Of a stretch of DNA of 64,000 nucleotides, positions 4,168 to 34,860 are shown piece after piece (position 1 is the first letter of the stretch; each line of letters starts with the position of its first letter). The DNA comes from an uncultured Nitrososphaerota archaeon. GTDB lineage: Archaea > Thermoproteota > Nitrososphaeria > Nitrososphaerales > CADDZS01. The notes below the pieces were generated by a model that was given only the letters and a program-made list of their open reading frames with translations, ran no database searches and had not been told where the DNA came from. The stretch is taken from the NCBI GenBank assembly GCA_963799845.1, contig CAWCYI010000006.1, positions 128,001 through 192,000 on the forward strand. The letters are read 5' to 3'. A program made the translations under genes and the position numbers.

Positions 4168-4250
4168 AAAAGTCATGCATTTTGTTAATATTCCAGTGGT
4201 TAAATTATCAGACCAGCTACGATATTTTAATTTGAAAAGTGTAATCAATT

Positions 4251-4469
4251 TTGAGTGAAGAAATTATCACTATGCTTTCGAACCTCGGGGCTCTCGATGA
4301 GGATAAGGCAGTGAGCAAGAAACTCCTGAACAATTCAGAGCGATTGAAAAACTCTTACTTAGACGATGATATCAGATCGCTCGAAGAACGAGGATATGTG
4401 AAGCAGGTGCAGGACAGACTTTATCTGACTCAATCCGGCCTCGTCAGAGCCCTGTCCAACTTTAGTTGA
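4251..4469 (+). CDS. Small winged-helix-like protein
   Basis: 72 aa with LEERGYV...LYLTQSG wing motif; AT-rich promoter upstream. Confidence 0.55.
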   Translation: MSEEIITMLSNLGALDEDKAVSKKLLNNSERLKNSYLDDDIRSLEERGYVKQVQDRLYLTQSGLVRALSNFS

Positions 4470-17882: not shown

Positions 17883-17892
17883 AATAAGTATT
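17883..17892. repeat. Putative attL core AATAAGTATT, overlapping the rps6e TATA box
   Basis: Identical to 33049-33058; lies between the rps6e start and the integrase start. Confidence 0.65.
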
Positions 17893-17969
17893 CTTGGGTG
17901 AATAATCCATCGAATAATTGAAGCGAACTAACCATGTAAAATACAAGAAAAGAGAAAAGTGAGAATTGG

Positions 17970-19151
17970 ATGTCAACAGAAACAGTACAAATCCCTGATA
18001 AGAGCGTCGTGGATTCTTTCCTAAAGTCTCTGCGTACTGAGAAAACAAGGATGACTTACGCGCTGGCATTCCGCATAATGCTTGAGGGTCATCCCGAGAC
18101 ATTCCTCAATATGGCAGCCACTGACAGAAGGAAAGCGGAGCAGATGATCCTTGACTGGATTTATGAAAATCAGGAAAAGCTTAGTGGGTCAACTATACGA
18201 ACATATTTGGCCGCGACTCGCTCTTTGCTAGAGTTTGCTGAGATTCAAAATTTCAACTGGAGAAAAATAATCAAAGCATCCCCAAGAATGAGCAAGTCAG
18301 AGGACAGACCGCCAAACCTTCAAGAATTGAGATCCATCTTTATTCCCGGCGATGTAAGGTTCAAGTTTCTTGTTTCTGCCATGGCATCCGGCGGTTTCCG
18401 TGTAGGTGCCTGGGATTACTTCAGATTCAAAGACCTGAAAATAATTCAAGTCGAGGATCAATCTTTGAAACTAAATCCGAAGAAAATCGAGATTGGCCTT
18501 CTCAAAGTCTATTTTGGCGAACCGGAAAGCTACGAATGCTTTGTTAGCTCTGAATGCGTACAACTATTCCGGGAATACGTCAAGGAGCGAATCCGTACTG
18601 GGGAAAAAGCTCGAATCGTCGATGGAGAAACGACTCTTTTGCCTGATGCTCCCTTGCTTGCCCATCTAGTTTCATTCGAAAGCAAGAATCCAAAAAGAGA
18701 ATTGACTTGTTCCGATTCTGTAAGGAGCCAAATGACCTATTCTTGGAAAAAAGCTGGATTCTGGGAAGACAAGGAGTTCAAAGGCTGCCATGGTACCCGA
18801 AAATTCTTCAAAACTCAACTTGAGCAATTCGGGCTAAAGTCGATTGTCGTCGAAAGGCTTCTCGGGCATTCGCAAGGACTCGATTCAAACTACTACAGAC
18901 CGACAAATGATCAGCTGGCATAGGAGTACGTCAAATTTCAAAATTGTCTGTTTCTGGATCCTAGTCTGACTTTGAAATCTGAGAATGAATCTTTAGCGGC
19001 AGAAGCAAGGTCAGAGATCGCAGGGCAAGCCAGTGAGATCCAGCTGCTGAAATCGAAAGTTTCAGCATTGACGGATGCGTTGAGTAGTGTGACTGAAATC
19101 TTGAAGAAAATCGAGCAAGAGAGGAAAAAAGAAAATCCTACAATCAGCTGA
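17970..19151 (+). CDS. Tyrosine recombinase/integrase; in-frame TAG at 18921-18923 removes the C-terminal coiled coil
   Basis: SGGFRVG (R), HGTRKFF (HxxR), LLGH, DSNYY (Y); frame stays open after the TAG until TGA at 19151. Confidence 0.9.
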
Positions 19152-19337
19152 GTTAAAACTGAGCTTTACAGATTTTTTTGAGCTGACAACGGAAGCTCCA
19201 ACCCGAAGTCATTTTCTCCGATTTATGACATTACGGGAGAGGTTACCATACTTGCTTAGAGGGGTATCCAATAGTTACTATAGCCCTCCATCTTCCGCCA
19301 AACAGTGTTTATTTCTTCTTGGCGGCCCGCGCTTTTC

Positions 19338-19457
19338 TCATAGGGAACCAACGTGGTTATCTTCCATCTTCCTCGCAGCTTCGAGAGCTGATTCGCTTGA
19401 GGGACTAGTTACAAGTTCTCTAAATCTAAAATCCTTCAGAGTTAGGAATTGTGCAAT
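19338..19457 (-). pseudogene. CBS-domain gene fragment
   Basis: Translates to ...ELVTSPSSESALEAARKMEDNHVGSL*, resembling the first half of a CBS repeat. Confidence 0.55.
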
Positions 19458-19533
19458 TTAACGACTAGAACTTGAGTTTCTTGTGCAAGGTGATCGGCTG
19501 ATTCACCGAGAACAGACTTTTCTGAAGGCTGTT

Positions 19534-19896
19534 CTATTGTTTTACGACAGTCTTACTCATTCCCTTAGGATTCCACGCATCGTATTGAGACTTGCAGCCA
19601 TAAGCGAACGTGAGGCCTCCAATTGCTTGGAATGCTGCGCCGGAGTATCCCAAAATCTCAGGTAGAAGTCCACTTGGTAGGTATGTAGAAACGCTAAGGT
19701 CTAGTGCGATAATTCCATAGATGAAGAAAAATGCAGCGAATGAAATGTACTTCCACCCTTTTGCGAGAATACCATTCTTGAAGCCCTTCAGTAATCTGAC
19801 TGCATTCACTCCCATTCCCAAAATTCCTAATATTGTCGTGACGCCGAGGATTGCGACAATCAAACTTGTTATGTCATACATTTTGTTTCTTCTCAA
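19534..19896 (-). CDS. Small membrane protein (3-4 TM helices)
   Basis: Hydrophobic segments; 9-nt gap to the upstream gene. Confidence 0.75.
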   Translation of the reverse strand: MRRNKMYDITSLIVAILGVTTILGILGMGVNAVRLLKGFKNGILAKGWKYISFAAFFFIYGIIALDLSVSTYLPSGLLPEILGYSGAAFQAIGGLTFAYGCKSQYDAWNPKGMSKTVVKQ

Positions 19897-19905
19897 CTCT
19901 TATTG

Positions 19906-20250
19906 CTAAGATCTCAACTGCTTTCGAGCTTCGTGTATTGCACGAACCAGGCTGTCTGAATAAGTTACTTCCGTTAGATGGAACGCATCTACCAAAGAAG
20001 CTACAATAGCGGTTTCCACATGATAACCCCTATCTCCAAAGAAAGCGCGAAGACTTTCAGAGAATAATTCCGGCTTTCTTGGAATCTCACTTCTTTCGCA
20101 ATTGTAGATTGTTTTGAATCTCCAGTAGATTACGCTCTTGACGCTCGTTCCGAAGACATCCAGGCCATTATCGATGCATTCGAGGATTTTTGACTCGGAT
20201 TCATTTCCTGCAAAAATCGTACTCGATATAGGCATCTTGAGTTCTTTCAA
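19906..20250 (-). CDS. DUF3227/NitrOD-like small helical protein
   Basis: IDNGLDVFGTSVKSVIYW...IPRKPELFSESLRAFFG pattern, as in thaumarchaeal signalling output domains. Confidence 0.65.
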   Translation of the reverse strand: MKELKMPISSTIFAGNESESKILECIDNGLDVFGTSVKSVIYWRFKTIYNCERSEIPRKPELFSESLRAFFGDRGYHVETAIVASLVDAFHLTEVTYSDSLVRAIHEARKQLRS

Positions 20251-20513
20251 AATAGAATCTGACTCTGCTTACAATATAACTACGGTGGACTTGATATCTG
20301 TACGCAAAAGCCAAGAGCTCTTCTATGTACTGGCTCCATTTCACTTACTACCCCAAAGGCTAGACTGGATTAGAATAACAGGAGACGTAGGTTACTATCC
20401 TAGATGGAAGCTGACTTTCCAGATTTTTTTGACTTTACGTCGTAAGCTCCAACCTTACTATTGGAACCGCTAACAAAGTTCAGTTAGTAATTTCGTCTCG
20501 GTTTACTCACATT

Positions 20514-20541
20514 AAGAAAAAAAGAGCTGCGTTTAGCAGCT
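20514..20541 (-). terminator. Hairpin plus U-tract terminator
   Basis: Minus strand AGCTGC-taaac-GCAGCT-CTTTTTTTCTT. Confidence 0.55.
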
Positions 20542-20703
20542 TACTTTGAACGTCGGAGCCCCTGCTGGAGGGAAGTAGAAATAACCGGCCGAGCACTCTT
20601 TCCCGTGCTGATTCCAAACTTCGAATACCGCTATAGTATTCGGCGCGGCTTGGAATACAGACACTCCCTTCGAGTTCGTGTACTCAGTCGTGTCAAGTTG
20701 AAA

Positions 20704-20973
20704 TCATAACTCTGATCTTTTCATAAGTTCCCTATAACGAAGTTCGCTTATGGTGATCGGAAGTTTTTCATCGGCTTCCCGAATTTGCCGTGTGGATTTC
20801 AATTCCAGTTTTGACTCTTCGCGGTCGAGTAATCCAGAATTCCTTATCGGATAATAGTATTTCAAATGCCCTTCCGAGCTGCAAGATTCTGGCGGTTTAA
20901 GGAGACAAGATTTGCCACAGCTCAAGCAATTCCCATTTTTTATCCAGTGCGCTGTCAACTTGTCAGAAGCCAT
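20704..20973 (-). CDS. Small Cys/His zinc-binding protein
   Basis: CLSCGKSC...C...H, 89 aa. Confidence 0.55.
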   Translation of the reverse strand: MASDKLTAHWIKNGNCLSCGKSCLLKPPESCSSEGHLKYYYPIRNSGLLDREESKLELKSTRQIREADEKLPITISELRYRELMKRSEL

Positions 20974-21065
20974 TTTATTTCATGTATATCAATCGTTCAG
21001 AACCCAAGGTCAAATTTCTGAGGTTACGCAGGGAGCGATCTCAACGTGGGGACTCGTGTCTCCTA

Positions 21066-21248
21066 TTACATTGGTGTTATGTCTCGGACACCAAATGATG
21101 GCTCCTTACCAGACCCTTCTTCTCCGATCGTGAGAAGACGCTTGAGTTCTTCGCATATCTCATCCATTGTCGGCATAGGCATCGGGTTCCCGTTGTCATC
21201 CATTTGAGAGCTGAGTTCGAGTCTGAGTTTGACATAGACTTCTTGCAT
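21066..21248 (-). CDS. Small hypothetical protein
   Basis: 60-aa ORF with GTGA purine-rich site upstream; co-oriented with neighbours. Confidence 0.4.
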   Translation of the reverse strand: MQEVYVKLRLELSSQMDDNGNPMPMPTMDEICEELKRLLTIGEEGSGKEPSFGVRDITPM

Positions 21249-21295
21249 GTTTTGTTTTCACCACAAAAAGAAAAAGGGAGGGAGACAAGTGTCTC

Positions 21296-22003
21296 CTATG
21301 AAGTTGGACAGATTGCGGTTAGGCTGTATGTGATCGAGATACCAGTGGTTTCGGTAGATACAATCTGTACGAAGGCTGCTGACCAAGTGTTGGTGTAAGT
21401 ATTGTCTCCACCCGATGCTACAACGTACGCACCGATGTCGCCATCTATGATAGGATTGTTGAAGAGTTGTACGGTAACAGTGTCCGAGCTTCCAACACCT
21501 GATGTTAGAAGTGTCAGTGTTATAGTACACGGGGATCCACCTGAATCAAACAACTCTACTGCTACGGTTCCGACTGCAACATCTGAACCAGACTCGTCTT
21601 CAACATTTGGAGTTAGCGTGGCTGTAGAAGTCGTTGTGACTGTATCAGTTACAGTCGCAGTTGTCGTCTGACAGCAGACAGCGGAAGTTGTGGTTGAGGT
21701 TATTGTTGAAGTCGATGTATCCGTCACTGTTGAAGTTGCCGTGGTTGTGCTATCAACAAAAACGGTACTCGTTGTGTGATCTGTTTTCGTGATAGTCTTC
21801 GTCACAGTTTTCTCGCTACTGTGAAGTGTGTTCGCACTCAAAGTCCCTGCTTGTGTAGAAGCTGAGACGCCAACAGAACAGGCATAGAGTACGAAGAAGA
21901 CCACCGCAAGCACAGCGATGGCCGACTTGGTTGTTGTATTGCCCGACTTGGCGAACTTACGACTGCTCTTACTTGCGGATTCTTTTAGGCTCAATCGAAT
22001 CAC
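21296..22003 (-). CDS. Secreted or surface Thr-rich protein
   Basis: N-terminal hydrophobic segment, long Thr/Ser tract, beta-rich C-terminal domain. Confidence 0.75.
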   Translation of the reverse strand: MIRLSLKESASKSSRKFAKSGNTTTKSAIAVLAVVFFVLYACSVGVSASTQAGTLSANTLHSSEKTVTKTITKTDHTTSTVFVDSTTTATSTVTDTSTSTITSTTTSAVCCQTTTATVTDTVTTTSTATLTPNVEDESGSDVAVGTVAVELFDSGGSPCTITLTLLTSGVGSSDTVTVQLFNNPIIDGDIGAYVVASGGDNTYTNTWSAAFVQIVSTETTGISITYSLTAICPTS

Positions 22004-22004
22004 C

Positions 22005-23285
22005 CTAAACGATTGTGACAGTCTCCGTTCCTGAGACGCTGTATGTTTGTCCGAGGAAATGCACTATGACTGCACCTGTAGCAGTTCCATCCATTGTAGC
22101 GATTTCGACTTTGGTTGGTGTGCTAGAGAATGAGGACTTACCGATGTTTGCTGTGTATGATCCCGTATAACCAGGATTTGCATTATTGATACAGTTAGGT
22201 GAACTAGCTGTTGTGCAACCATCACTCTGGACGATTATTCCGATTGGGTTGCCGTTGAAAGTGTTCTTGGAAGCCGAGTATGTATTTGGTGAGTCATATA
22301 CGTAAAGACCCGCTACGGTGTTGCCGTGGAAGTTGTTGGAGTTAGCAGTTGCTTGATCGTTGACTAGACACGCGCCTAATTGGTTCGCTTGTAGCTTGTT
22401 ATCATTGACCGTAGTTCCTGTTGCAGATTCGTAGGTTAGGATACCACAGCTCTCTGTTTGAGTGAAGGGGTTCGAACCACACACTGAAATCAAAGTGCAG
22501 ACATTTCCAGTAACTGTGTTATCAGTTACCCATCCTTTGGCACCAAAGCCTATCTGAATACCATTGGGGGCGATGAGAGCAGTGTACGGTGCATAGGGAT
22601 AGACTGTATTCCACGAGACCCAACACGATGTATCTGGATCGTTGCAGGTGATACCGTTCTTGTTGTAGTTGATAGCGTGATTGTTTTCAATCACAACGCC
22701 ATAGGATCCAATTTGGGTCTGGACGGTGATTGCGTCTCCGGGTTGACAGCCAGCGAGACTGACGGGGAGAAGAATGTTCTCGACTGTGTTGCTGAGTATC
22801 GAACCACCAGCGTTGAGAAAACCTATTCCATTGTAATCAACACCACAACCTGTGAAAGACGATTCTGCTTTAGAACCATCAACAACAAGATTCTGTATGA
22901 CTACGCCAGTCAACCCTACTAACGCTAGACCCGCGAGGATGATGTCTGCTGTTGGAGCCGATGTATCAGGATCGATTGTATTGGGAATGAGAGAAGTTGG
23001 TTGGATGAGAGTTGGATGCAGAGATGTTCCAAGACCACGGAGAACCAAATCTTTGGTGATAGATAGTTGTTCAGGATACGTTCCTGACGAGACACAAATC
23101 ACAGCACCACTAGAGGCACTCTTGATCGCGGTCTGAATGGCGTTGTTACCAACATTCTCACCAGTTATTGTTGTAGTACATGGAGGAGAATGGGTTGCGA
23201 ATACGGTTGTCGTTACGGGCAGAACTGACAGCAAAAATAATGCAGCTACCAGGACTGACATTGAAGTAAGTTTAGTTTTGTTCAT
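22005..23285 (-). CDS. Secreted right-handed parallel beta-helix (pectin-lyase fold) protein
   Basis: Signal peptide; IQTAIKSA..G..ICVSSGTYPEQL start; repeated N..N...GI motifs. Confidence 0.85.
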   Translation of the reverse strand: MNKTKLTSMSVLVAALFLLSVLPVTTTVFATHSPPCTTTITGENVGNNAIQTAIKSASSGAVICVSSGTYPEQLSITKDLVLRGLGTSLHPTLIQPTSLIPNTIDPDTSAPTADIILAGLALVGLTGVVIQNLVVDGSKAESSFTGCGVDYNGIGFLNAGGSILSNTVENILLPVSLAGCQPGDAITVQTQIGSYGVVIENNHAINYNKNGITCNDPDTSCWVSWNTVYPYAPYTALIAPNGIQIGFGAKGWVTDNTVTGNVCTLISVCGSNPFTQTESCGILTYESATGTTVNDNKLQANQLGACLVNDQATANSNNFHGNTVAGLYVYDSPNTYSASKNTFNGNPIGIIVQSDGCTTASSPNCINNANPGYTGSYTANIGKSSFSSTPTKVEIATMDGTATGAVIVHFLGQTYSVSGTETVTIV

Positions 23286-24442
23286 GTCTTATTTCCTAAC
23301 GATATCGTGTTTACGGCGATACCCATCAAGCACTTGAGCTCTGCATCGTAAGCGTTCCTGAACACGGATGAGAGCCACTGGCAAATGATGCCACCAACAA
23401 CGGGTATAATCAAAAAAGGCTCAGCAAAAGTACGCAATGCACACCCTTTCTGAAGGATGTTACTACTCATCTACGTAGAGTCCGCAGATTTTGATCATAG
23501 ATCGATATCTCAGTACGACTTTCGCAGGGAGAACTCATGGAAGTAAACCTTGGCCTAGGCCAATAACGTCCTCTTTATAAATCTTGTATTTATATCGGGA
23601 TCCGGTATATTCCTTAATTATTCTATATAGCCAAATGATCGATTTTCGTCAAGAAAAGAATGGCGATCGCGATTTGATTTCTATAGCCTGCTAATTCCAT
23701 GCGACTGGCGATGGTGATTTTAAAAAAAGTATAATCGAGGAGCCATTTTCGGCCTCTCTCTTACTGTTTTGTTACGTGCAAGTACTAACCCTCTTTCACT
23801 GCTTTAAGACGAGAAAAACTGCGCTATAGAGCGTCAATTTGGTCTTTTGTGGAATCTTCACGACCTCCCTAATAACTACAACAGCGACAATCCTCAGTTT
23901 CGATAATCTCTTTCAGGGAATCAGGAAGGGAAAAAAAAGTAAGTCAACGGTACGGTAAATCTGAGAACTAAGATTGCTTTGTCTCCAATTACGCCTTCGT
24001 TTTGCCCGTTTATGATCTTCTTTACTATGGCAAATTCGTACTGATGAGACAAAACCTATCCTCTTTCCGTACTTTCAGTCCAGCTTTCCGAAGCTCTTTC
24101 TGAATCATTCCCTCTTTACCGTGAAATTTCTTCCTTAGACCAAATCTTTTCTGTTCCCGAAGGAATCTCTTACGAACAAATCATACAGTTGCTTAGTGCC
24201 AACCGTATCATTCATTTTTGCCATAGTGGTCAAGAAATATTTCTCTATGCTAGAAACTAGCTCATCGCTCGATAGAGAAAATCTAGAAGTTAGTAACAGG
24301 CCCGAAATTTTCACCCGACTGTAACGGGTAGAATTTCACCCGAGAATGATAACGAAACCCTTCCTTTCGAGTTAAAGAGATAATTAATATCACTCCCTTT
24401 GGTCATGTGAAACGGTTGGAATGTAGAAATACAAGATTTTCC

Positions 24443-25941
24443 GTAAGAGGTTACCGTTCTGAAGCTGAATTCAGGTAGTCGAGCGCGTAATCATAGAAGT
24501 TAAGTTTTCTCAGATTGCAAGTCTCTCTGACACTCATCAGCACCTTGTGGGCATCGGCTCCGTTAGTCGATTGGTTGCCATAGGTTATTTTTCTAATCAC
24601 TACACTCGGTCTTACCGCTCTCTCAGCTGCGTTGTTGTTCCAATCAACTCCCTTTTCTTCGAGAAAGGTGAAGAGCATATCCTTCTCTCGATTGAGGCGC
24701 TTCAAGAACCTCTTGCAGTTCTTTTCTCCAGTGGATGAGTACGCTTCGACGAGTGTCTCCATCCTCCTTTCGAGCCTCTTCTTTGTATTTAGGCGATCGC
24801 TCTTCACATTTACTCTCCTTCCCACCTTTATCGCGTCGTTCAGTATGCGTTTGAGCTTCTTTGCAAATGCAAGAAATTCTATCCCGGGACTCTTGTAGGT
24901 GAGAGTGTCATCCACGTCTCTTCGGTAGTGCTGCAGGCACCTCTGGTGCTTTTTACCGACGTAGTTCCACGCCGGCCACGAATCGCTTATCACGGTTCCA
25001 GGATAGTCACTCCCGAGAATCTCGAGTGGTACATCCCTGCCCCTTGAATTTGCTATCTCGTAGACGACAGACCATTTTCCTACGAACGCCCACAGCCAGT
25101 GGTTCTTTCCCTTGATCCTCCAGCTCGTTTCATCTCCGTTGAGACTCTTCTCCCTTCTGATATCAGAAATGAGCTGATCGTACACCGGACCAAAAGCTTC
25201 TGCGACCTTGGATACGGAGTGTTCTATCGCCGCATCAGTCATCTCCAGATTGAAGAGCAGCTTGAAGAGTGAACTAATCTTTGCGTATGACAACCCGAGC
25301 AGTTTCAGTGAAACTACGAGGAGCATGAGACGCAGACCGAATCTTTCATTGCTTCCTCCACCAATCACGTTTGGAATGGCGGGAGAGACCTGCCCTCCAC
25401 ACCTCTTGCAGTACCGCCTCTTGATAACGTACTCAGTTGCAACGAGTCTCGCAGGAACAATGTCCTCGACCACCCTGGTGTATTCATCCGTTGGATCTTC
25501 AGAGAGATGCCCGCCGCACTTCGGACAGGTTGTCTGGTCAAGCTCGATTCTTGCGTCAATGTGCAGAGGCCTCCTTCTGCTCTTCCCCTCATGGCCGTTC
25601 TTCCTGCCTGGTGGTCTCGTCTTCTTGTGATTGGAGGAGGAGTCTGCCTTTGCTCCTATTCCTCTTGCAACAACGGCTGATACCGTTGTCTTGAGCGAGG
25701 AGAGCTCTTCATGCAGCTGTTTGTTTTCTTCGACGACGAGTTTGTACTTCTCTTCGAAGCCGGATAACTTTTCCTTCAGCTCTTTGTTTTCCTCTTTGAG
25801 TCTGGAAAGCTCCTTCCTGAGCTTGTCATTCTCGACATCAATCTCCTCCTCAACGGTCGGCAAGAGTCTTGCGGTACAAATGAAAACAAGACTCGGCCAA
25901 ATGTCTTTCGGCCTAGGAGCTTCAAAACACTAAATGCTTAC
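24443..25941 (-). mobile_element. IS66-family insertion sequence
   Basis: Imperfect 24-bp TIRs starting GTAAG (18/24 match); 8-bp TSD GATTTTCC at 24435-24442 and 25942-25949. Confidence 0.93.
24451..25863 (-). CDS. IS66-family transposase
   Basis: Coiled coil, GRKNGHEG, CPKCGG/CKRCGG, GDETSW, QRCLQH, NNAAERAVRP. Confidence 0.95.
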   Translation of the reverse strand: MPTVEEEIDVENDKLRKELSRLKEENKELKEKLSGFEEKYKLVVEENKQLHEELSSLKTTVSAVVARGIGAKADSSSNHKKTRPPGRKNGHEGKSRRRPLHIDARIELDQTTCPKCGGHLSEDPTDEYTRVVEDIVPARLVATEYVIKRRYCKRCGGQVSPAIPNVIGGGSNERFGLRLMLLVVSLKLLGLSYAKISSLFKLLFNLEMTDAAIEHSVSKVAEAFGPVYDQLISDIRREKSLNGDETSWRIKGKNHWLWAFVGKWSVVYEIANSRGRDVPLEILGSDYPGTVISDSWPAWNYVGKKHQRCLQHYRRDVDDTLTYKSPGIEFLAFAKKLKRILNDAIKVGRRVNVKSDRLNTKKRLERRMETLVEAYSSTGEKNCKRFLKRLNREKDMLFTFLEEKGVDWNNNAAERAVRPSVVIRKITYGNQSTNGADAHKVLMSVRETCNLRKLNFYDYALDYLNSASER

Positions 25942-26034
25942 GATTTTCCTAATTTTAGGTACAGTAGCGTCTGTAAACGACAAGAAACACTTGGAAAACG
26001 CCAAAAGCTACGAATCTAGGAACAGAATCGACAT

Positions 26035-27078
26035 TTGGGCCAGCTCACTCCGGAAGTTCGTGAAAAAATTCGAGAATCCTACAACAGGACTCTGAGTTAT
26101 AAGAAGACGAGCGTTGAGACAGGCGTAGACTGGAGGAAAGTCAAGAAGGTCGTTATCGCACCGCCGAACGAAGAATCCAAAACCCCAAAAAGCGTTCAAA
26201 ATCGGGCGTATTCACTGTACGCAAGGGGTAACTCACCCGTTGATGTGGCTAACGATCTTTCTATAAGTGCAGACGAAGCGCTTGGTTATCATCTTGAGTA
26301 TCTGAAACTCATTGGAAAAGGTGAACTTGCGAAGTCCCTCGCAAGGCTCGATACGCAAGAAACGAGAGCGATCTTATCACTGCAAAGTGAATTGGAAAAA
26401 CTTCGATTAAGCCCTTCAAAATTCGCGTTTATGCTTAATCTCACGGAGAAGCTCAAGAACGTCGAAGCTAGAACCAGAAATCAAGATGAAATACTTTCCT
26501 CAAGAAGATCTGAGGTACGGGCGATAAACGACCAGTTCCAGAAGACCAGCGTAACTCTTGCCTCAGCCCAGAGAGAGTTATCAAAAGTAACTTCCGAAAA
26601 AGTTTGTTTGAATGGGGAAATTACTAATCTTGAGTCCCAGAGGAATCAGATCTTAGCGGAGATACGAGCCGCGAAGAGCGATACTTCACTCGCAAAGTTC
26701 AAGGAACTCGCCGAGCAGGAGGCCAGGCGAGTGCTAGACGGAGTTAATCGACGTCGGATGATCGCAATCGCGGTTTCTTGCATGATTGATGCTCTCAGAT
26801 ACGACAGGAAAACACGAATCATGTTAGAACTAGGAGCGTCGAGCGAAAATGAAGCAACTAGGCTTTATGGAGACAGTCTTACCAACATAGTCGAGAGGTC
26901 ATTTGACGCTGAAGCCAAGAGGTTCACATCTCAGGTGATTTCGCAAATGGCGAACTCATCCAATGTTCTTCAAGCAGCCCAGCCGATAACATCATTTCAA
27001 CGCATTCCTTTCGCTGTATCGATCTTCGAAGAAGCTCGGTCAAGCAAAACGACAATCAATGAGCTTGCTCTGCATTAG
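26035..27078 (+). CDS. HTH plus coiled-coil protein of archaeal mobile elements
   Basis: Two HTH-like segments (LSYKKTSVETGVDWRKV; AYSLYARGNSPVDVANDL) followed by heptad repeats. Confidence 0.7.
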   Translation: MGQLTPEVREKIRESYNRTLSYKKTSVETGVDWRKVKKVVIAPPNEESKTPKSVQNRAYSLYARGNSPVDVANDLSISADEALGYHLEYLKLIGKGELAKSLARLDTQETRAILSLQSELEKLRLSPSKFAFMLNLTEKLKNVEARTRNQDEILSSRRSEVRAINDQFQKTSVTLASAQRELSKVTSEKVCLNGEITNLESQRNQILAEIRAAKSDTSLAKFKELAEQEARRVLDGVNRRRMIAIAVSCMIDALRYDRKTRIMLELGASSENEATRLYGDSLTNIVERSFDAEAKRFTSQVISQMANSSNVLQAAQPITSFQRIPFAVSIFEEARSSKTTINELALH

Positions 27079-27912
27079 AGGATCGAGGCCGTGATTCCTC
27101 TTCCATCTGATCAAATTCTCGTCTGAGAATCTTCGGGAGCGGGGGCGGCGGGCCAAGCATTTGGTTTTGTCTCCTCTCGGGTTGAGTCAAGACTTTTATC
27201 ATAATGTCACGTCCGTCAGGAATTTCCAATAATTCGTAGAGTGAATTCTCAACGAATTCCTCAATCATTCTGCCTGGAGTTCCGTCAGGAGACAATGCTC
27301 CATCGAACTTTCGATATAGTCCTCGATATTGCCGAAAGTGTTCCGCTACATCACTTTGCCTTAGTCTTCGAGCCAACCAATTCCAAATTGGTGCAAGTCC
27401 CTCTTTACCTGAAGGGCTCAGAACATCTGGATTGAGGTAACCTTTCCTGATCATCTCCCCGATCCCGTCGATTATCCAGCATCTCAAAAATTTTGAAAAA
27501 GCCGTGTCATCGGAATCTTTGAGAATCTCGGAGCAGAAATCGAAGAAAGTATTTGATTCCCTATTTATCCTAAAATTGATACTTGGATCCACGAGTATCG
27601 CGATCAGTGATCCTTTGAAGGTCAGGTCAAAAATAGGAATCGTTTTCTTGTTCTTGTTTTTGCTTGGTCTCGAACCGCACATTCTCAGATATCCATCATG
27701 TACCAACCTATTCACTCGTTTGCTTACAACTTTCTGGGAAATGTCACGCAATTCGGGTTCTAAAGATGAATTGATTTTCTTTTTGAGTTTAGATTTGGAC
27801 ATCTTCCCATGTCTTGCAAACATTCTGAACACCCGCAGATTCAGCGGCCTAGCTTTACCTCTAAGGGCAAGCTAAGCTCTTTGTCTCGCTGTTGTTGCGC
27901 AATAGTAGACAT
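27056..27912 (-). CDS. Winged-helix regulator (ORF 27056-27832; probable start 27912 with an indel near 27875)
   Basis: VSKRVNRLVHDGYL...FDLTFKG wHTH wing; divergent from the RHH gene. Confidence 0.7.
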
Positions 27913-27947
27913 GAGGTTACCTTTCGTCTAATTTCGAACTAATAAGC

Positions 27948-27966
27948 AATCAGTGTCTAACTGATT
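27948..27966. promoter_or_regulatory. Palindromic operator upstream of the RHH gene
   Basis: AATCAGT-gtcta-ACTGATT between TATA-like CTAATAAG (27939-27946) and ATG 27973. Confidence 0.55.
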
Positions 27967-27972
27967 CATCAT

Positions 27973-28149
27973 ATGAACAACACCGTTTTCGCAAGAATGA
28001 AACAAGAACACGCACAACTTGTTAGAGAGGTCTGCGATAACCGCGGAGAAGATGTCTCCGACTTCATTCGAAGGGCAGTACTGAAGGAGCTGGCATCCCT
28101 TTCCTACCTCAGTGAGGCGGAGAAAAAGTCGCTCGGAATGCGGGAATAG
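27973..28149 (+). CDS. Ribbon-helix-helix (CopG-like) protein, absent from the ORF track
   Basis: 58 aa MNNTVFARMKQEHAQLVREVCDNRGEDVSDFIRRAVLKEL...; beta strand, helix, G-x-x-VSDFIRRA. Confidence 0.8.
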   Translation: MNNTVFARMKQEHAQLVREVCDNRGEDVSDFIRRAVLKELASLSYLSEAEKKSLGMRE

Positions 28150-28289
28150 AGGTTTTAGACTAAGTGTCAACTTTCCAAATTTCAAGGAAATCGGACATCA
28201 TGAACCCCAGGAGCGATACATCTTGACAGATTCAATCTTGAAACTCTGCCGAGAGGGAATTTGTGCTATTGAAAAAACACGTGTGAGGC

Positions 28290-28703
28290 TTGCGACTCTC
28301 GATCGCGAAGCCTCCAGTAAACTCTCTGCCAGCGATGGAAGTGAATTTGAACATGAAAGCGCCGACCCTATCTAAAAACAGTCTAGTTCGCTCGACTATC
28401 CCCGGGATCGAAGCATTGGAGCCGGGCAAATTTCTCTGCAAATGTCACGCAAAACCTCGAGAATTTTCGACTTTCGAGGGGCTTTTCCTTCATACAACTC
28501 GAACACGAAACGGGAGATTTCCCAAGAATTACGGGGCGAGTCAAGGGCATGTTTTGGGTAATCTAGACGACTCTGGAAACGAAATCGACGAGCTCTTCCT
28601 TCATAACAAACGAATGTACAACCGGTTGAAAAAAGGATCAAAGGTACAACCCGGGACGAAGATCTCGGATGAAATTTCGGAATCTGGGGAATGGTGGAAT
28701 TGA
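28290..28703 (+). CDS. Zinc-finger-like protein upstream of the primase
   Basis: FLCKCH...FSTFEGLFLH resembles a C2H2 finger; overlaps the prim-pol start. Confidence 0.55.
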   Translation: MRLSIAKPPVNSLPAMEVNLNMKAPTLSKNSLVRSTIPGIEALEPGKFLCKCHAKPREFSTFEGLFLHTTRTRNGRFPKNYGASQGHVLGNLDDSGNEIDELFLHNKRMYNRLKKGSKVQPGTKISDEISESGEWWN

Positions 28704-29590
28704 ACCGGATCGAACCATTTACCAAATTATATCGCGATCTTGGCTTCAATATCATCCCACTGAAGCCGAAAACGAAAGAGCCCGCTATTCAATCATGGAA
28801 AGAGTATCAAACTCGGAGAGCTACTTCTGAAGAGATTAACAAATGGTGGCTGGAAGGAGCCGAGAATCCTAACAATCTTGCCATAATCACCGGGGAGATT
28901 TCGGGAGACTTAGCGGTCTTGGATTTTGATTCCACAGCCGCTTACGAGAATGCTCTCACCAAACAAGAAAGAGAGAGAGTCGAAGACAGTACGATAGTTG
29001 TCTCGACTGGTAAGGGTTATCATGTATATTTCACTTCAAGTGAACTGGAACGGAATCAAGCCTATCAAACTCCTTTCGGTCACGTTGATGTGAGGGGTGA
29101 AGGCGGTTATGTTGCCGCAGCGCCTTCAATTCATCCAACTGGCAGAGCCTATACTATCATAAGCAAGACAACCCAGATGTGGAAAGTGAACTTCAAACTT
29201 GTAATTCAAGATGTCCTAAATAATCTTGGTCATACTGGAAGAATTACAACTCTTCCAATCTTGGATTACTCCGATCTTTTCCTTCTCGCACTGAAGAAGG
29301 ATGAAGAGCTAAAGGATCTCTTCGAGGGACGTTGGACGAACTGGATTAAGAAAACCCGAAGCGAAGCAGAGTTCAGACTTATCAAGAAACTTGTCCTTTT
29401 TGGATTCTCAGACGACGCGATAAGATCCTTTATGCCTTCCTGCCAAATTGGAAAGTGGCAAGAAGAGGGTGGACCTTACCAGAGATTGACATTAGAAAAA
29501 GCACGAAGGCAATTCATACAATCGAAAACAAGAACGATGAAACCTAGAAGGCTGAATCATCCGTACCAACTAAAGCCAGGAGTTGTATAA
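28691..29590 (+). CDS. Bifunctional primase-polymerase (prim-pol, AEP superfamily)
   Basis: GFNIIPL..K.P...WKEYQ, NLAIITG, VLDFD, TGKGYHVYF, DVRGEGGYVAAAPSIH. Confidence 0.93.
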   Translation: MVELNRIEPFTKLYRDLGFNIIPLKPKTKEPAIQSWKEYQTRRATSEEINKWWLEGAENPNNLAIITGEISGDLAVLDFDSTAAYENALTKQERERVEDSTIVVSTGKGYHVYFTSSELERNQAYQTPFGHVDVRGEGGYVAAAPSIHPTGRAYTIISKTTQMWKVNFKLVIQDVLNNLGHTGRITTLPILDYSDLFLLALKKDEELKDLFEGRWTNWIKKTRSEAEFRLIKKLVLFGFSDDAIRSFMPSCQIGKWQEEGGPYQRLTLEKARRQFIQSKTRTMKPRRLNHPYQLKPGVV

Positions 29591-29593
29591 ATC

Positions 29594-31006
29594 ATGGAAG
29601 AACCTTCACAAACACCTAGGGATCAAGAAAAGATTCCGACACTTTCAGAAGAAAGAGAATCCTTGATTTCGAAAGTTTTGAAGGACTTACCATTAGTTTG
29701 TCTCGCTGACACCGAGGAATTAACGCTTTATCGAAGAGGAGTTTATGTCCTGGGAGGAGAACAGAAGCTTAAGGGATATTTGGAAAGAACCGTTCAAGAT
29801 TGCAGCACTCGCAAAGTAAATGATATTCTGGACAGTGTGAAGCGCCGTACTTACGTCGATCGTGAAGAATTCGACAAGTACCCGACAATTCTAAACTTGA
29901 AAAATTGTCTCTACGATTTAGAGAACGATCGAGCCCTAGAACACGATCCAAAACACTATTCTTTCGTTCAACTTCCAGCTATTTACAAAGAAGGCGTCGA
30001 TTGTCCAAAGATCAAGAAATTCCTTTCCGAAGTTCTCTACGAAGAGGATATACCACTAATTCAAGAATTTTTTGGATTCATCCTTTGGAAAGAGTACCCA
30101 TCAGCAAAAGCGTTAATGTTTGTCGGCGAGGGCTCAAACGGAAAATCCACCCTTCTCAATCTGATTAAAGCGTTAGTCGGAATCGGAAATACATCAGCCC
30201 GAGGTTTGCAAGAGTTAGAAACCAACCGATTCGCAAAAGCTGACCTGTACGCGAAACTTACGAATCTCTACGCAGACTTGCCCGACGTCGCGTTGAAATC
30301 TGGTGGTACCTTCAAGATGCTAACTGGCGGCGATCAGATTACAGCCGAAAAGAAATTCCAACATTCATTCAATTTCATCAACTGTGCAAAACTACTTTTC
30401 AGTACAAACAAGATCCCAGAAGTAAACGACGATACTGATTCGTTTTTTCGGCGCTGGTTCTTGATCACCTTCCCAAATACGTTCGACGGAAAAACAGCCA
30501 ATAAGAAACTAATCAAGGAGTTAACTACTGAGGACGAGATTTCAGGGCTCCTAAATTGGGCTCTTGAAGGGTTAAGACGTTTACGAAAGAATGACTGGAA
30601 TTTCTCGAATTCTAAGAGTACTGATGAAGTTCGACTTGAATACATTCGAAAATCTTCACCGATCAAGGCGTTTCTTCTGGATTGCACACTTGCCGAAAGC
30701 GAAGGCTGGGCACCTAAACAAAGGCTGTTTGATGCCTTCTGTGAGTATTGCAGACAAGAAAAACTTCCGATAGTGGGGCGGGATTCATTCTTCAAGAAAT
30801 TACCCGAATTCCAGCATGTAGAATCTCAACGTCCGGAAATTAATGGGACTCGGACGCCATGTTTCATAGGCATATCACTCCGACTTAATCAGAACTGGAA
30901 AACACTGGCCAAGGAAGGAGAAACCCCTGAAACCGAGGAAAATTGGACTAAACTGGAAAAAGCCCTTGACAGACCTGACAGCCCTGCCACGATGGACGGA
31001 TATTGA
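29594..31006 (+). CDS. SF3 (D5/P4-type) replicative helicase
   Basis: LNLKNCLYDL (D5_N), GEGSNGKST Walker A, KMLTGGD, FSTNKIP, FFRRW. Confidence 0.93.
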   Translation: MEEPSQTPRDQEKIPTLSEERESLISKVLKDLPLVCLADTEELTLYRRGVYVLGGEQKLKGYLERTVQDCSTRKVNDILDSVKRRTYVDREEFDKYPTILNLKNCLYDLENDRALEHDPKHYSFVQLPAIYKEGVDCPKIKKFLSEVLYEEDIPLIQEFFGFILWKEYPSAKALMFVGEGSNGKSTLLNLIKALVGIGNTSARGLQELETNRFAKADLYAKLTNLYADLPDVALKSGGTFKMLTGGDQITAEKKFQHSFNFINCAKLLFSTNKIPEVNDDTDSFFRRWFLITFPNTFDGKTANKKLIKELTTEDEISGLLNWALEGLRRLRKNDWNFSNSKSTDEVRLEYIRKSSPIKAFLLDCTLAESEGWAPKQRLFDAFCEYCRQEKLPIVGRDSFFKKLPEFQHVESQRPEINGTRTPCFIGISLRLNQNWKTLAKEGETPETEENWTKLEKALDRPDSPATMDGY

Positions 31007-31036
31007 TTTTGGCAAGGGTGACAGACGTGTCAAGGG
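30963..31036. repeat. Imperfect 27-bp inverted repeat with TGACAG units; candidate replication origin
   Basis: CCCTTGACAGACCTGACAGCCCTGCCA (30963-30989) matches the reverse complement of 31010-31036 at 21/27. Confidence 0.6.
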
Positions 31037-31177
31037 TTATTCTAACTTTAAGCAAAATATTGAGGGATTCTTGAATGAACCCAGAGCCTATAGCGTGTTT
31101 TATGAGTGGTTCTATTCTAAGCGCGATTAGCGGAGAATATTCTTTCTCTAATGAAGATAATGTATTCTTCTGTGCTT

Positions 31178-31501
31178 TTAGTGAAGACTCTTCGAGCCTA
31201 AAGCCTTGTTCAGAGGATTTCGTTTCTTTGTTCGTAGCATTCCGATATATGGAGGGGCATCCTTTGTTGGCCGTATTGTAAACCTAAGAGTTGTGATTTT
31301 CTGCCTTTGATATTTCCCTGTTGCGTCAGCAACGATGAGCTTGATTCCGCCTCCGGCTTCCTTAATCTCGGTCACCGCTAAAGAAAACTCAACTGGGCCG
31401 ACTTCTGATCGACTTTGCTCAGCGGCATGAAATATGTCTTCAAGAGATTTTTCAATAAAAGAATAAAGTTCCGACTTGTCGGCTCCCTTCAACTGTTTCA
31501 T
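31178..31501 (-). CDS. Trypco2-like (trypsin co-occurring domain 2) protein
   Basis: L..FI...L..I helix, then VEFSLAVT..KEAGGGIKLIV.......ITTLRFTI beta hairpin. Confidence 0.7.
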   Translation of the reverse strand: MKQLKGADKSELYSFIEKSLEDIFHAAEQSRSEVGPVEFSLAVTEIKEAGGGIKLIVADATGKYQRQKITTLRFTIRPTKDAPPYIGMLRTKKRNPLNKALGSKSLH

Positions 31502-32028
31502 TTGAGATTCGCTGAAGAGCCTCGATTTTGTCGAGAAAAAGGTTTGCTTGCTGGTTCAAAAGTCACCTTCAATTTGCTCTCTTGAAAAGTGATATCATAC
31601 ATTTCGAAGAAAGGCTTCCTGCCAAGTAAGGGGAAGTTCAAATTCGTATCTTCTTCTGCCTCTGGTTCATTACGTTCAGGTAATTTTTCCGGCACAGAAA
31701 CAGGGACTGAACCGAGGGGAATCTCCTTCTTGTTTAAGATTAGCCAAATTTCCACCGCTGAGGTTCTGACATGAAAAAGCCCAGAGGCTGCCACGTTTGG
31801 CTTTGTCTCTTCCGAAAGTTTCATTTCGAGAACCTCTGCAACATCAAAAGGAATAAGAGAAATATCGGCGCCTGAGTCTAACAACATAACCGTTCTAAAG
31901 GTATGAGTTCCATTCTGCAGACGAACAGGCAACCGCGGTCGAAAAATCGGATCTCCTTGAATTAGATCCCGAGTATAATCCACTGTAAAGGCAAGAGTTC
32001 TGAAGCCTTTACTCAAAAAATCAATCAC
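31498..32028 (-). CDS. Retropepsin-like (clan AA) aspartic protease
   Basis: RPRLPV, MLLDSGADISLIP catalytic DSG, PLLGRKPFF. Confidence 0.9.
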   Translation of the reverse strand: MIDFLSKGFRTLAFTVDYTRDLIQGDPIFRPRLPVRLQNGTHTFRTVMLLDSGADISLIPFDVAEVLEMKLSEETKPNVAASGLFHVRTSAVEIWLILNKKEIPLGSVPVSVPEKLPERNEPEAEEDTNLNFPLLGRKPFFEMYDITFQESKLKVTFEPASKPFSRQNRGSSANLK

Positions 32029-32222
32029 AGAATCTGATCTATTTTGGATCGCGGAACCCTAATGAAGAAAGGCTTTTGACCCTTCGACTTTGAATTTGCT
32101 TCTGCGTAGACAACTTTCAAGTTCTTGCCATGAGAAATTACTTCATTTTCAAGTATTGCAATCCATTCCCCGGCAAAACCGGAAAGGTCTTTCTTGCTGT
32201 AATACTGAAGCTCTGTTGACAA
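32025..32222 (-). CDS. DUF5678-family protein
   Basis: FAGEWIAILENEVISHGKNLKVVYAEA...PFFIRVP. Confidence 0.8.
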   Translation of the reverse strand: MSTELQYYSKKDLSGFAGEWIAILENEVISHGKNLKVVYAEANSKSKGQKPFFIRVPRSKIDQIL

Positions 32223-32575
32223 CTCAGACCACCAGGGAAGCTAAACTTTCAGCGACATCCAATATAGACATTTGGTACATAACCCAGAAGGAAGATGGTT
32301 TAGTACCTAGAGAATCTGCACGATTTAGAGGAAAAAAGTCAGAGTCCTTTAAAGCTTTAACAGTTGGCCTCTCAGTATATCGGATCCAGCAATAAACAAG
32401 CTCTCCTAACCACTGGTAAAAGGTCATTCATCGCCAGCGTCAAAGTAAATCCTGCATAACGAGAGCGCCGGCGCTGTTTCTTGATCGACAAAGTAAGGTG
32501 TCGCGCTCGTTGAAACCATTGTACGAGCGTAATCGATTCCACCTGTACTAATGGAAACGAACCAAACGACACTTA

Positions 32576-32821
32576 TCATGAGAAATACAACGGGTCCAAA
32601 AGTACTCTTTGACGGCGTACTTTTTCTTCGAATTCTTTTATGCGACTGCGTTCAAGTCTAAGATGCGGGTTGGGCGGTCCAACTCTTTTGCCAACATGAT
32701 AGCAGGGAATAGAGCAATATTTCGATTCAGGTCTAATTGACTCATACTTTCTATCGCAATTTTTGTTTTGGCAGACTAGCTCGTACAATTCTTTCAAGCT
32801 CTCCGAGCCGAGTGATGCCAT
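32576..32821 (-). CDS. Small zinc-finger protein
   Basis: CQNKNC...KYCSIPCY. Confidence 0.55.
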   Translation of the reverse strand: MASLGSESLKELYELVCQNKNCDRKYESIRPESKYCSIPCYHVGKRVGPPNPHLRLERSRIKEFEEKVRRQRVLLDPLYFS

Positions 32822-33048
32822 TTGATATGATCGCGAAGCTCGATTTCAGTCCCAAATTTTGAATCGCCTAAGCCTGAATGTTGGCAGTACCGGCAGGAGA
32901 AGACCGGCTCTCTTGGTTCGTAGCTATACCGAGAGTTATTTGGCACGTCTCCCGTTTGTCAAAGCATCTAAATTTAATCCGGTAAGTTCGTTTTTTGAAA
33001 GGAATTTATAGCCCGGGAATCTATTATCTGAGCGGTTAACCGCGCTCA

Positions 33049-33058
33049 AATAAGTATT
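33049..33058. repeat. Putative attR core AATAAGTATT
   Basis: 8 nt from the infB stop; identical to 17883-17892; adjacent palindrome TGAGCGGTTAACCGCGCTCA (33029-33048). Confidence 0.65.
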
Positions 33059-33066
33059 ATTTTCGT

Positions 33067-34860
33067 CTAATATCCGTAAAGGGGAGAAACTTTGCGCCTG
33101 ACCGAAATTATTTCCTTGAGTAACTGTCGATCATCGTTCGATATCGCTTGAAGGTATTTTTGATTTAGCAGTCTCACTTCCTGCTCCGAGGGTACTGTGT
33201 ACAGTATGTCTCCTTCGTTCACCTGTCTTCCAATAGTAGGTCCACTGATCGAAACTGCGATCTGCTCGCCCTTCTTGGCTTCGGCAATTGTCTTGCCCTC
33301 TTCCTGGATCTGATGAATTACGCCAATAGTCTTTCCCGTAACCCCCATTATATTGCATTTCTGCCTTAATTTTCCTTCGATAATTTCAACGCCGAAAACA
33401 GCCGGATCGTTACGCCTAAAAGAAAACCCCTTGAGAAATTGAAACTTACATAACGGGGTCAGAGCTTCCAGCCCTGTCTTTTGTTCCGAGTCTTGCTCTT
33501 GCGTTACCCAGCCAAGATAATTGTCGATCAGATTGTAGATTATCTGATCTGAAAACACTTTCAGTTTGCTGTCTTGAATCTCTTGCTCCGCATCAGGGAG
33601 AATCTTCACACTGAATGCGAGAATCACACCTCTGTACTTGTCATTCTTTCTCACCGCTGAAGCCTCCACTACGTCTCGCCTTGACACAGGGCCAATATCC
33701 GCTCGTTTGATTGGTATCTGCCGTGATTTTAGCATCTCTACAATTGCTTCAAGAGATCCCAACGTGTCCGCCTTCAGGATAATCCCGTTGACATCGGATT
33801 CGATCATTACCTGCTTAACTTCGGATTCGACCATCGCCTTAGTTTCGTCCATTCTAGCTTCATCGAACGCAACCAAAGGAGAGCCAGCTAGAACTCCTTC
33901 AAGATCTGGAGTCACAATTTTGACTCCCGCCGCGGCTGCGATGGAGTCTACACTTGCAAACTTATCCCGCGGATCCCGCATTTCATCCAGTGGTTTTGGC
34001 ATGAAAATGGCTTTGATCTTCGTAACGACTGCTCCGTCTTTTTTAGCCATTACAACCTGATCGCCGTTTCGCAGCACACCCTCGAGGAGGATAATATTTG
34101 CAGTCTCCCCGACCCCGGGCTCTTGTTTGACTTCCAAGACAATGCCGCGGGCGCGAGCGTCCGATGATACCGACAGTCTCTTTTGAAGATACACCTGAGT
34201 TAATCCAACCAAAACTGCGATCAACTCTGGTATCCCTTCTCCGGTCCTTGCACTGACGGGAACAATTGCGACTTCCTTTCTGAAATCTTTGATTCTGTAG
34301 AGCGCTTCGGAGTTTATTCCTAATCTGGACAGCTCACCGACTACCGTGTATATTTTCTGGTCCAGAATGTCTACGACCGATTTTGGTTGATTCTTGATAG
34401 CTTGGGTGATAAATTTGGAAGTTCCTTTCTTCCAACCAGCTATCGTATCTACTTTGTTCAGCGCAATAACGAACGGAACTTTTCGTTGTCGAAGTATTTC
34501 CAGGCTTTCTTTGGTTTGAATTTCGAGTCCTTTCTGGACATCAACGACCAGAATGGATATGTCTGCCGCGGAACCGCCACGATTTCGCAGATTGGTAAAT
34601 ATTTCGTGGCCAGGAGTATCTATGACAAGAAGACCCGGGACACGAATTTCGCCGCCACCGATCGTTTTCAAAAGGGGGCCGCATATCTCTTTCAGTGTCT
34701 CAGCGGGGAAGAAACTTGCGCCGATGTGCTGAGTAATTCCCCCCACTTCTCTTGCCTGGACGCCAGTTCCTCTTATCTTATCTAGAAGCGAGGTTTTTCC
34801 CGAATCTACATGGCCGAGTACCACTACAACCGGCGATCGTATTTGAGAAGTGGTTTCCAT
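33067..34860 (-). CDS. infB: Translation initiation factor IF-2 (aIF5B)
   Basis: RSPVVVVLGHVDSGKT, GGITQHIGA, DTPGHE, KADTLGSLEA. Confidence 0.97.
   Translation of the reverse strand: METTSQIRSPVVVVLGHVDSGKTSLLDKIRGTGVQAREVGGITQHIGASFFPAETLKEICGPLLKTIGGGEIRVPGLLVIDTPGHEIFTNLRNRGGSAADISILVVDVQKGLEIQTKESLEILRQRKVPFVIALNKVDTIAGWKKGTSKFITQAIKNQPKSVVDILDQKIYTVVGELSRLGINSEALYRIKDFRKEVAIVPVSARTGEGIPELIAVLVGLTQVYLQKRLSVSSDARARGIVLEVKQEPGVGETANIILLEGVLRNGDQVVMAKKDGAVVTKIKAIFMPKPLDEMRDPRDKFASVDSIAAAAGVKIVTPDLEGVLAGSPLVAFDEARMDETKAMVESEVKQVMIESDVNGIILKADTLGSLEAIVEMLKSRQIPIKRADIGPVSRRDVVEASAVRKNDKYRGVILAFSVKILPDAEQEIQDSKLKVFSDQIIYNLIDNYLGWVTQEQDSEQKTGLEALTPLCKFQFLKGFSFRRNDPAVFGVEIIEGKLRQKCNIMGVTGKTIGVIHQIQEEGKTIAEAKKGEQIAVSISGPTIGRQVNEGDILYTVPSEQEVRLLNQKYLQAISNDDRQLLKEIISVRRKVSPLYGY

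Follow-up and report, generated by a model that had tools for sequence, protein, structure and literature searches.

A Trypco2/Pepco-like gene behind a DUF5678–retropepsin-like protease gene pair on an integrated element of a Nitrososphaerota archaeon

Can a small protein related to peptidase-activated bacterial toxins come under the control of a retropepsin-like aspartic protease in an archaeon? This question is raised by three overlapping genes which lie near the right end of an integrated element in the genome of an uncultured Nitrososphaerota archaeon from soil (assembly GCA_963799845.1, contig CAWCYI010000006.1, positions 128,001 to 192,000; this stretch of 64,000 nucleotides (nt) is referred to as the window). 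They code for a DUF5678 protein (gene 1), a retropepsin-like protease (gene 2) and a Trypco2/Pepco-like protein (gene 3). The original prediction for this locus described the trio as a candidate protease-activated defence or toxin system; the observation was confirmed by the present analysis, and the interpretation was partly supported. We tentatively read the locus as a lineage-specific Pepco module which is gated by the aspartic protease of a DUF5678 cassette, gene 3 having been acquired behind the pair; the trio is possibly a new kind of suicide switch.

The three genes and their products

Calling of open reading frames (ORFs) in the window returned three minus-strand ORFs exactly at the coordinates named beforehand (Table 1). 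The predicted coupling was likewise found in place: the stop codon of gene 1 and the start codon of gene 2 overlap in GTGA (32025-32028), and those of gene 2 and gene 3 in ATGA (31498-31501). Since these stop/start overlaps of four nucleotides leave no intergenic room for a promoter of their own in front of gene 2 or gene 3, the three genes may be transcribed as one unit from the integrase-bearing element, as the tentative reading given above supposes. Parts of the locus were also recovered from four DNA runs of one soil study, as short contigs of low depth; among the sequencing runs listed for the locus, none was of RNA.

The product of gene 1 matched DUF5678 (PF18929) with an E value of 1.9e-10 and 40.9 bits, above the cut-off of 23.2, as had been predicted. 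An AlphaFold2 model was obtained with a predicted local distance difference test score (pLDDT) of 79.1, and a fold search of the model against the PDB gave no match at E <= 0.001. Searches of genes 1 and 3 against NCBIfam and PADLOC yielded nothing except a weak match to PDC-M21A (E 0.028), and our literature search for DUF5678 returned only one unrelated paper. The DUF5678 protein is proposed to be a partner or an inhibitor of the protease. A hydrophobic C-terminus is conserved among DUF5678 proteins in the alignment, with the consensus ETMIF and the residues DQIL in the window. This terminus recalls a substrate-like or product-like tail, or an autoprocessing junction; two bacterial loci in which a single ORF matches both the DUF5678 and the protease model (L060 and L068) would fit such a role.

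Gene 2 codes for a single domain of 176 amino acids (aa) with the motifs LLDSGADIS (D51-S52-G53-A54) and LLGR (G136-R137). D51, S52, G53, A54 and G136 are invariant in the alignment of 62 protease sequences, and R137 is nearly so. As a single sequence, the protein gave weak matches under the respective cut-offs, namely to Asp_protease_2 (E 0.0017, 19.5 bits versus 24.3) and to TIGR03698 (E 0.0014, 19 bits versus 57), besides a weak match to the PADLOC model PDC-M52B (E 5.6e-5) in the active-site region only. The family profile matched retroviral proteases in the PDB, the best being 1mvp with an E value of 5.7e-5 and the others ranging up to 7e-3. A retropepsin which keeps its DSG motif had been predicted here, and judged by sequence the label “retropepsin-like” is justified. 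Proteases of the clade to which the window belongs are longer (162-176 aa versus about 140 aa) by virtue of N- and C-terminal extensions. No sensor was recognized, either in gene 2, which codes for a single domain, or as an NTPase or sensor family among the scanned ORFs of the element. Complex prediction with two copies of the protease and residues 64-107 of the gene 3 product gave a score of 0.00, which speaks neither for nor against binding.

The affiliation of gene 3 with Trypco2 (PF19631) had originally been suggested by eye. The match has an E value of 1e-4 and 22.9 bits, just below the cut-off of 24.2. In a full phmmer pass over 1.84 billion representative sequences, 47 relatives were detected, mostly of 83-124 aa. 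The alignment comprised 43 sequences, i.e., the query and 42 single-domain matches, the frameshifted protein P0002 and the multi-stretch proteins P0012, P0013, P0018 and P0037 being omitted; 36 of these 43 matched Trypco2 at E <= 0.01 (best value, 5.8e-8), and just one of the ten nearest relatives of gene 3 scored above the cut-off. Because of its score below the cut-off, the matches of 36 of the 43 homologs, and the single nearest relative above the cut-off, gene 3 is placed as a member of a peripheral branch of Trypco2, so that the assignment made by eye has held up. No relative was found when the profile of the gene 3 subfamily was compared by sequence with the PDB, or when viral contigs were scanned with the gene 3 alignment; in the homologous-protein search, gene 3 and P0010, its closest homolog, each retrieved only themselves, plus P0002 in the case of gene 3. 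The hairpin region of gene 3 is matched by 3 to 15 separate stretches in P0012 (1069 aa), P0013 (2873 aa), P0018 (1176 aa) and P0037 (301 aa), as if the Trypco2-like unit also occurred in a tandem-repeat form in giant proteins.

The AlphaFold2 model of the gene 3 product, calculated from the 43-row alignment, comprises a helix (residues 11-29), two strands (37-44 and 69-76) and a tail that lacks structure; with a mean pLDDT of 65.7, i.e., moderate confidence, it is compatible with the helix, beta region and basic tail that had been described for this protein. The N-terminal helix is amphipathic. The reading frame is intact and retains all nearly invariant residues of the family (F39, V43, G51, G62 and F74). 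Position 76, which ends the last strand, is occupied by I in 22 of the 43 homologs and by V in 15. In gene 3, I76 is followed by R and a tail of 31 residues with 9 charged residues and 4 Pro; I76 may be the counterpart of I97 in SsPepco, a characterized member of the family. The length of the tail (31 residues) and a KDAP.Y.G.L patch within it, which reads KDAPPYIGML in gene 3, are common only to gene 3 and P0010. Hydrophobic stretches like this patch are of the kind favoured by aspartic proteases.

Association of gene 3 with the protease pair

Relatives of the protease were analyzed at 142 loci: 80 on genome contigs, 29 from the same order (401 genomes) and 33 on metagenome contigs. These sets are partly redundant, and the unpublished genome G611 contributes one of the order loci. 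In 110 of the 142 loci, a DUF5678 gene is located directly upstream of the protease gene, and fusion to one ORF occurs in the two bacterial loci mentioned above, in agreement with the earlier statement that DUF5678 is commonly found next to clan AA aspartic proteases. DUF5678 and the protease thus form a widespread, self-contained two-gene pair, the hosts of which are DPANN archaea, Thermoplasmatota, Nitrososphaerales, and several bacterial phyla including lineages of the candidate phyla radiation (CPR). Within the order, the protease has a patchy distribution (32 of the 401 genomes), and internal stops in 8 of 38 protease matches suggest frequent decay of the cassette. Signs of a likeness to type II toxin-antitoxin systems are indirect and consist of the strict adjacency, the occasional fusion, the patchy distribution and the internal stops; the patchiness and the stops, like the position of the pair on mobile DNA, are in keeping with a module for conflict or addiction. 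A Nanoarchaeota contig (L010) carries two tandem DUF5678–protease pairs (3729-4378 and 4790-5439); their hidden Markov model (HMM) scores are identical, suggesting that the duplication is recent.

The families Trypco1 and Trypco2 owe their names to the trypsin-like peptidases with which they co-occur in conflict systems (Kaur et al. 2020, PMC7159879); both have since been renamed Pepco (Evans et al. 2025, bioRxiv 10.1101/2025.11.14.688446). SsPepco, as characterized in the latter preprint, forms pre-assembled beta barrels of 9-10 subunits which resist heat and detergent. It is activated by the adjacent Avs4 serine protease, which cuts behind a conserved Ile and thereby removes a charged, Pro-rich tail of 2 kDa; SsPepco truncated exactly at this site is lethal to E. 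coli, and its basal amphipathic helix is needed (Evans et al., bioRxiv 10.1101/2025.11.14.688446). The originally predicted release of a membrane-damaging Trypco2 effector by cleavage has thus been demonstrated for Pepco with serine proteases, whereas the predicted replacement of trypsin by a retropepsin goes beyond the partners named in the preprint, which are serine and cysteine proteases only.

For the locus in the window, an analogous sequence of events can be envisaged. DUF5678 would hold the dimeric protease latent. Upon loss of this restraint, through infection or through loss of the element, the protease would cut the gene 3 product in its disordered C-terminal tail. This Pepco-like protein might be present as a pre-assembled helix-plus-hairpin barrel as in the case of SsPepco, and once clipped it would permeabilize the membrane, resulting in abortive infection or addiction. 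Inhibition by DUF5678, cutting of the gene 3 tail, oligomerization and toxicity are what we infer for this locus; the pore nature of Pepco-type proteins is taken from the literature. The modelled layout of gene 3, with helix, strands, and a disordered tail, is the same as that of Pepco and would support the proposal.

A protease-gated module is favoured, if tentatively, because of the peptidase link which defines the family, the translational coupling, the rarity of both genes, and a probable second, diverged instance. With regard to rarity, the Trypco2-like subfamily was detected in 4 of 401 genomes across the phylum and in 13 of 401 within the order; the genome of the window is contained in each of these figures. 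Given these 13 genomes and the 32 with a protease, an adjacency by chance is a priori unlikely. Besides the window, the adjacency was found in a sibling contig (19,893 nt), whose protease P0003 is 98% identical to gene 2. P0007, a further protease fragment with 60% identity to gene 2, and P0010 (62% identical to gene 3) both stem from Logan, and the source of either one is a lone contig 1013 nt long; because of this match of source and size alone, the two are probably encoded on one contig, which would represent a second, diverged instance of the trio. A maximum-likelihood tree was calculated for 15 proteases, i.e., the first 12 of the 62 alignment rows together with P0004, P0007 and P0009, the other 50 rows being left out. 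The window protease, P0003 and P0004 (78% identical to gene 2, from a JGI contig of 2487 nt) form a group with a support of 95/95, with P0007 next to it, while relatives that lack a third gene (P0005, which is the protease of locus L128, and that of L129) are in a separate clade (support 98/99). The position of P0007 beside the window and P0004, apart from L128 and L129, is consistent with a single gain of gene 3.

Nearly as likely, in our estimation, is a chance juxtaposition, by which a portable DUF5678–retropepsin cassette has come to lie beside an unrelated, orphan Trypco2-like gene that is co-transcribed and its product left unprocessed. The cassette would then be toxin-antitoxin-like, or a regulated protease with targets of its own, and the gene-dense mobile element would have served as landing site. 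A considerable body of evidence supports this explanation and weighs against a protease-gated module. A Trypco2-like ORF is absent from all 142 other protease loci, including L128, the nearest readable one, in which the protease is 60% identical and the GTGA-coupled pair is followed by a convergent, unrelated gene and by no third gene. When 51 ORFs of 60 aa or more, located downstream of the protease at the 80 genome-contig loci, were compared all against all, no recurrent third gene emerged but only small lineage-specific groups, the largest with five members. Conversely, neither a protease nor a DUF5678 gene was found within 1.5 kb of any of the 15 other Trypco2-like loci of the Thermoproteota, and the 28 flanking ORFs of 14 of these 15 loci include no peptidase family. 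In six species of one genus, g202 (loci L116, L118, L119, L120, L123 and L124), orphan Trypco2-like genes with no protease nearby occupy two conserved chromosomal settings, with either a DRG-type GTPase gene as neighbour or hemerythrin and methyltransferase genes on the two sides. This conserved housekeeping synteny within a genus implies that the subfamily usually acts without an adjacent protease. In three genomes (G572, G415 and G561) the protease and a Trypco2-like gene are both present, albeit on different contigs. A failure of the trio to recur had been named beforehand as grounds for rejecting the prediction, and this is largely what was observed: outside the window, recurrence is limited to the near-identical sibling and the one probable, diverged contig, so that the trio is not a recurrent operon and the adjacency is confined to the window lineage.

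The remaining points on this side concern the genes themselves. Gene 3 of the sibling contig is frameshifted after residue 53 (P0002). At the site of this frameshift, no indel is seen in the four soil DNA runs; their cover is broken between 31259 and 31303. The protease is devoid of a sensor domain, and the position of gene 3 below the Trypco2 cut-off, together with that of nine of its ten nearest relatives, weakens the link to peptidase-activated toxins. Moreover, genes that have nothing to do with each other often overlap by four bases on compact elements of archaea. What speaks against mere coincidence, in addition to the rarity of both genes, is that the family of gene 3 is the one family of small proteins defined by co-occurrence with peptidases, that the probable second instance at about 60% identity has a congruent position in the tree, and that the long tail motif is confined to gene 3, which follows a protease gene, and P0010, which probably does so.

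In bacteria, death effectors activated by sensor-attached serine or cysteine proteases were experimentally established in 2025. Should the protease-gated module prove to be true, a Pepco-type effector would appear able to pass from one protease class to another and between domains of life, and gene 3, as natural substrate and reporter of the protease, would provide a handle on the function of the very common DUF5678–retropepsin cassette. That the locus represents the first Pepco-type pore effector under a retropepsin-like aspartic protease in an archaeon, with DUF5678 as labile restraint, is a stronger claim which we consider rather unlikely as a whole. It would add a third catalytic class and a second domain of life to those known for protease-licensed cell-death modules, and the orphan cassette, common in DPANN, CPR and Thaumarchaeota, would gain its first readable output, as a latent protease “toxin” to which an effector can be coupled. 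If the adjacency is accidental, an ordinary passenger cassette lies beside an orphan gene on an integrated element.

The integrated element

The original prediction placed the trio in the cargo slot of an element, and an insertion of 15.2 kb with a direct repeat, an integrase, a prim-pol and a D5-type helicase was indeed delimited (Table 1). Its borders were obtained by comparison with congeners; a repeat search alone did not reveal them. In the four congeners G420, G470, G455 and G483, the aIF5B gene is located at a distance of 0 to about 1.9 kb from a small gene beside the eIF2-gamma gene, which identifies the segment between the two in the window as an insertion. The 10-nt direct repeat AATAAGTATT lies at both borders of the element and occurs in the window only at 17883-17892 and 33049-33058; two matches were obtained in 0 of 100 shuffled sequences, and a single related sequence is present at the empty sites of G420 and G470. 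Since the window contains no tRNA gene, the attachment site is not a tRNA but the intergenic space from the aIF5B side to the small gene flanking eIF2-gamma.

Table 1. Features of the integrated element and its flanks (coordinates refer to the window)
Feature	Coordinates	Strand	Remarks
eIF2-gamma gene	16130-17410		flanking housekeeping gene
Integrated element, 15.2 kb	17893-33058		delimited by comparison with four congeners; trio near right end
Tyrosine integrase, 317 aa	17970-18923	+	left end of element; phrog_1 integrase, E 2.6e-7, residues 14-314
IS66-family transposase	24451-25863	-	inside element; DDE_Tnp_IS66, E 1.1e-36; zf-IS66
Replication module	28691-31006	+	prim-pol and D5-type helicase; convergent with trio
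Prim-pol	28691-29590	+	Prim-Pol, E 5.4e-25
D5-type helicase	29594-31006	+	DUF5906, E 1.4e-20; D5_N, E 2.4e-13
Trypco2/Pepco-like protein (gene 3)	31178-31501	-	107 aa, ATG start; PF19631 match
Retropepsin-like aspartic protease (gene 2)	31498-32028	-	176 aa, GTG start; DSGA and LLGR motifs
DUF5678 small protein (gene 1)	32025-32222	-	65 aa, TTG start; PF18929 match
Two small overlapping ORFs	32576-32946	-	far right end, upstream of trio; zinc-ribbon and C2H2-like Cys/His patterns, Pfam matches marginal
aIF5B gene	33067-34860		flanking housekeeping gene; followed by NDK, L7Ae and GluRS

The IS66-family transposase gene inside the element indicates that the element itself has been a target of transposition. 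Judging from their Cys/His patterns, the two small ORFs at the far right end could code for regulators of the element. A 67-aa ORF (32224-32427) upstream of the DUF5678 gene is probably not a gene. Within it, the Logan contigs of two runs have one base fewer than the window at 32307 and at 32313, which reflects either small indel errors in the window or strain differences.

The location of gene 3 on an element with integrase, prim-pol and helicase genes raises the possibility that its product serves the element itself in a membrane-active or structural role, for example in release, transfer or superinfection exclusion, and that it is co-expressed with the pair but acts independently of proteolysis. 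A relative of gene 3 (L086) is fused to a coiled coil and lies between a Rep-like gene and an integrase gene, and the modelled amphipathic helix and strands of gene 3 might suit membrane binding. We nevertheless regard this explanation as improbable: most relatives of gene 3 are chromosomal and not associated with elements, no virion or transfer genes were recognized among the scanned ORFs of the element, and the characterized family members are latent toxins rather than structural proteins. That gene 3 is a decaying or non-functional remnant, as the frameshifted copy of the sibling contig and the score below the Pfam cut-off might suggest, is very improbable in view of its intact frame with the nearly invariant residues kept, the gap-free alignment of a Logan contig of run X1 to the window over 31303-31515, and the full length of P0010 at 62% identity.

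Comparison with known systems

Our literature search yielded no paper in which a Pepco/Trypco2 protein is paired with an aspartic protease or with DUF5678, although supplementary neighbourhood lists, which lay outside the search, could hold such cases. Among characterized proteins, the closest counterparts of gene 2 are retroviral proteases (PDB entries 1mvp, 2rsp, 5fiv, 1fmb and others), with which the family profile aligns over the DSGA active-site region. The protease of the locus differs from them in being encoded by a free-standing cellular or mobile-element gene, outside any polyprotein, and in having a dedicated small partner gene. With respect to order, motifs and the same stop/start overlap as in L128, genes 1 and 2 represent a typical copy of the DUF5678–retropepsin-like cassette; the presence of a Trypco2-like third gene sets them apart from each of the other copies examined.

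The proposed mode of action would resemble that of bacterial gasdermin–protease and EACC1–protease modules, in which a latent pore-former is freed by an adjacent protease. According to Evans et al. (bioRxiv 10.1101/2025.11.14.688446), the effector folds of these modules are unrelated, and they oligomerize after cleavage, whereas Pepco is pre-assembled.

The Pepco–protease modules, exemplified by SsPepco–SsAvs4, are the systems to which the tentatively favoured module would be most directly related, and several differences are evident. The protease of the locus is a retropepsin-like aspartic enzyme of 176 aa, in contrast to the serine and cysteine proteases described as partners in the preprint, and it is not fused to a STAND, FGE or other sensor domain, a difference which again tells against an analogous mode of activation. 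A DUF5678 gene precedes the protease gene, and the host is an archaeon. The gene order is reversed as well, since SsPepco is encoded upstream of its protease, whereas in the window the protease gene comes first and is followed by the Pepco-like gene. Compared with the Pepco family at large, gene 3 scores under the Pfam cut-off, and its pairing with a protease is found in one lineage only. On the other hand, gene 3 shares with the Pepco–protease modules the match to the Trypco2 HMM, the location on mobile DNA directly beside a protease gene, and the predicted succession of a helix, strands, and a charged, Pro-containing, disordered tail, which may likewise follow a conserved Ile/Val.

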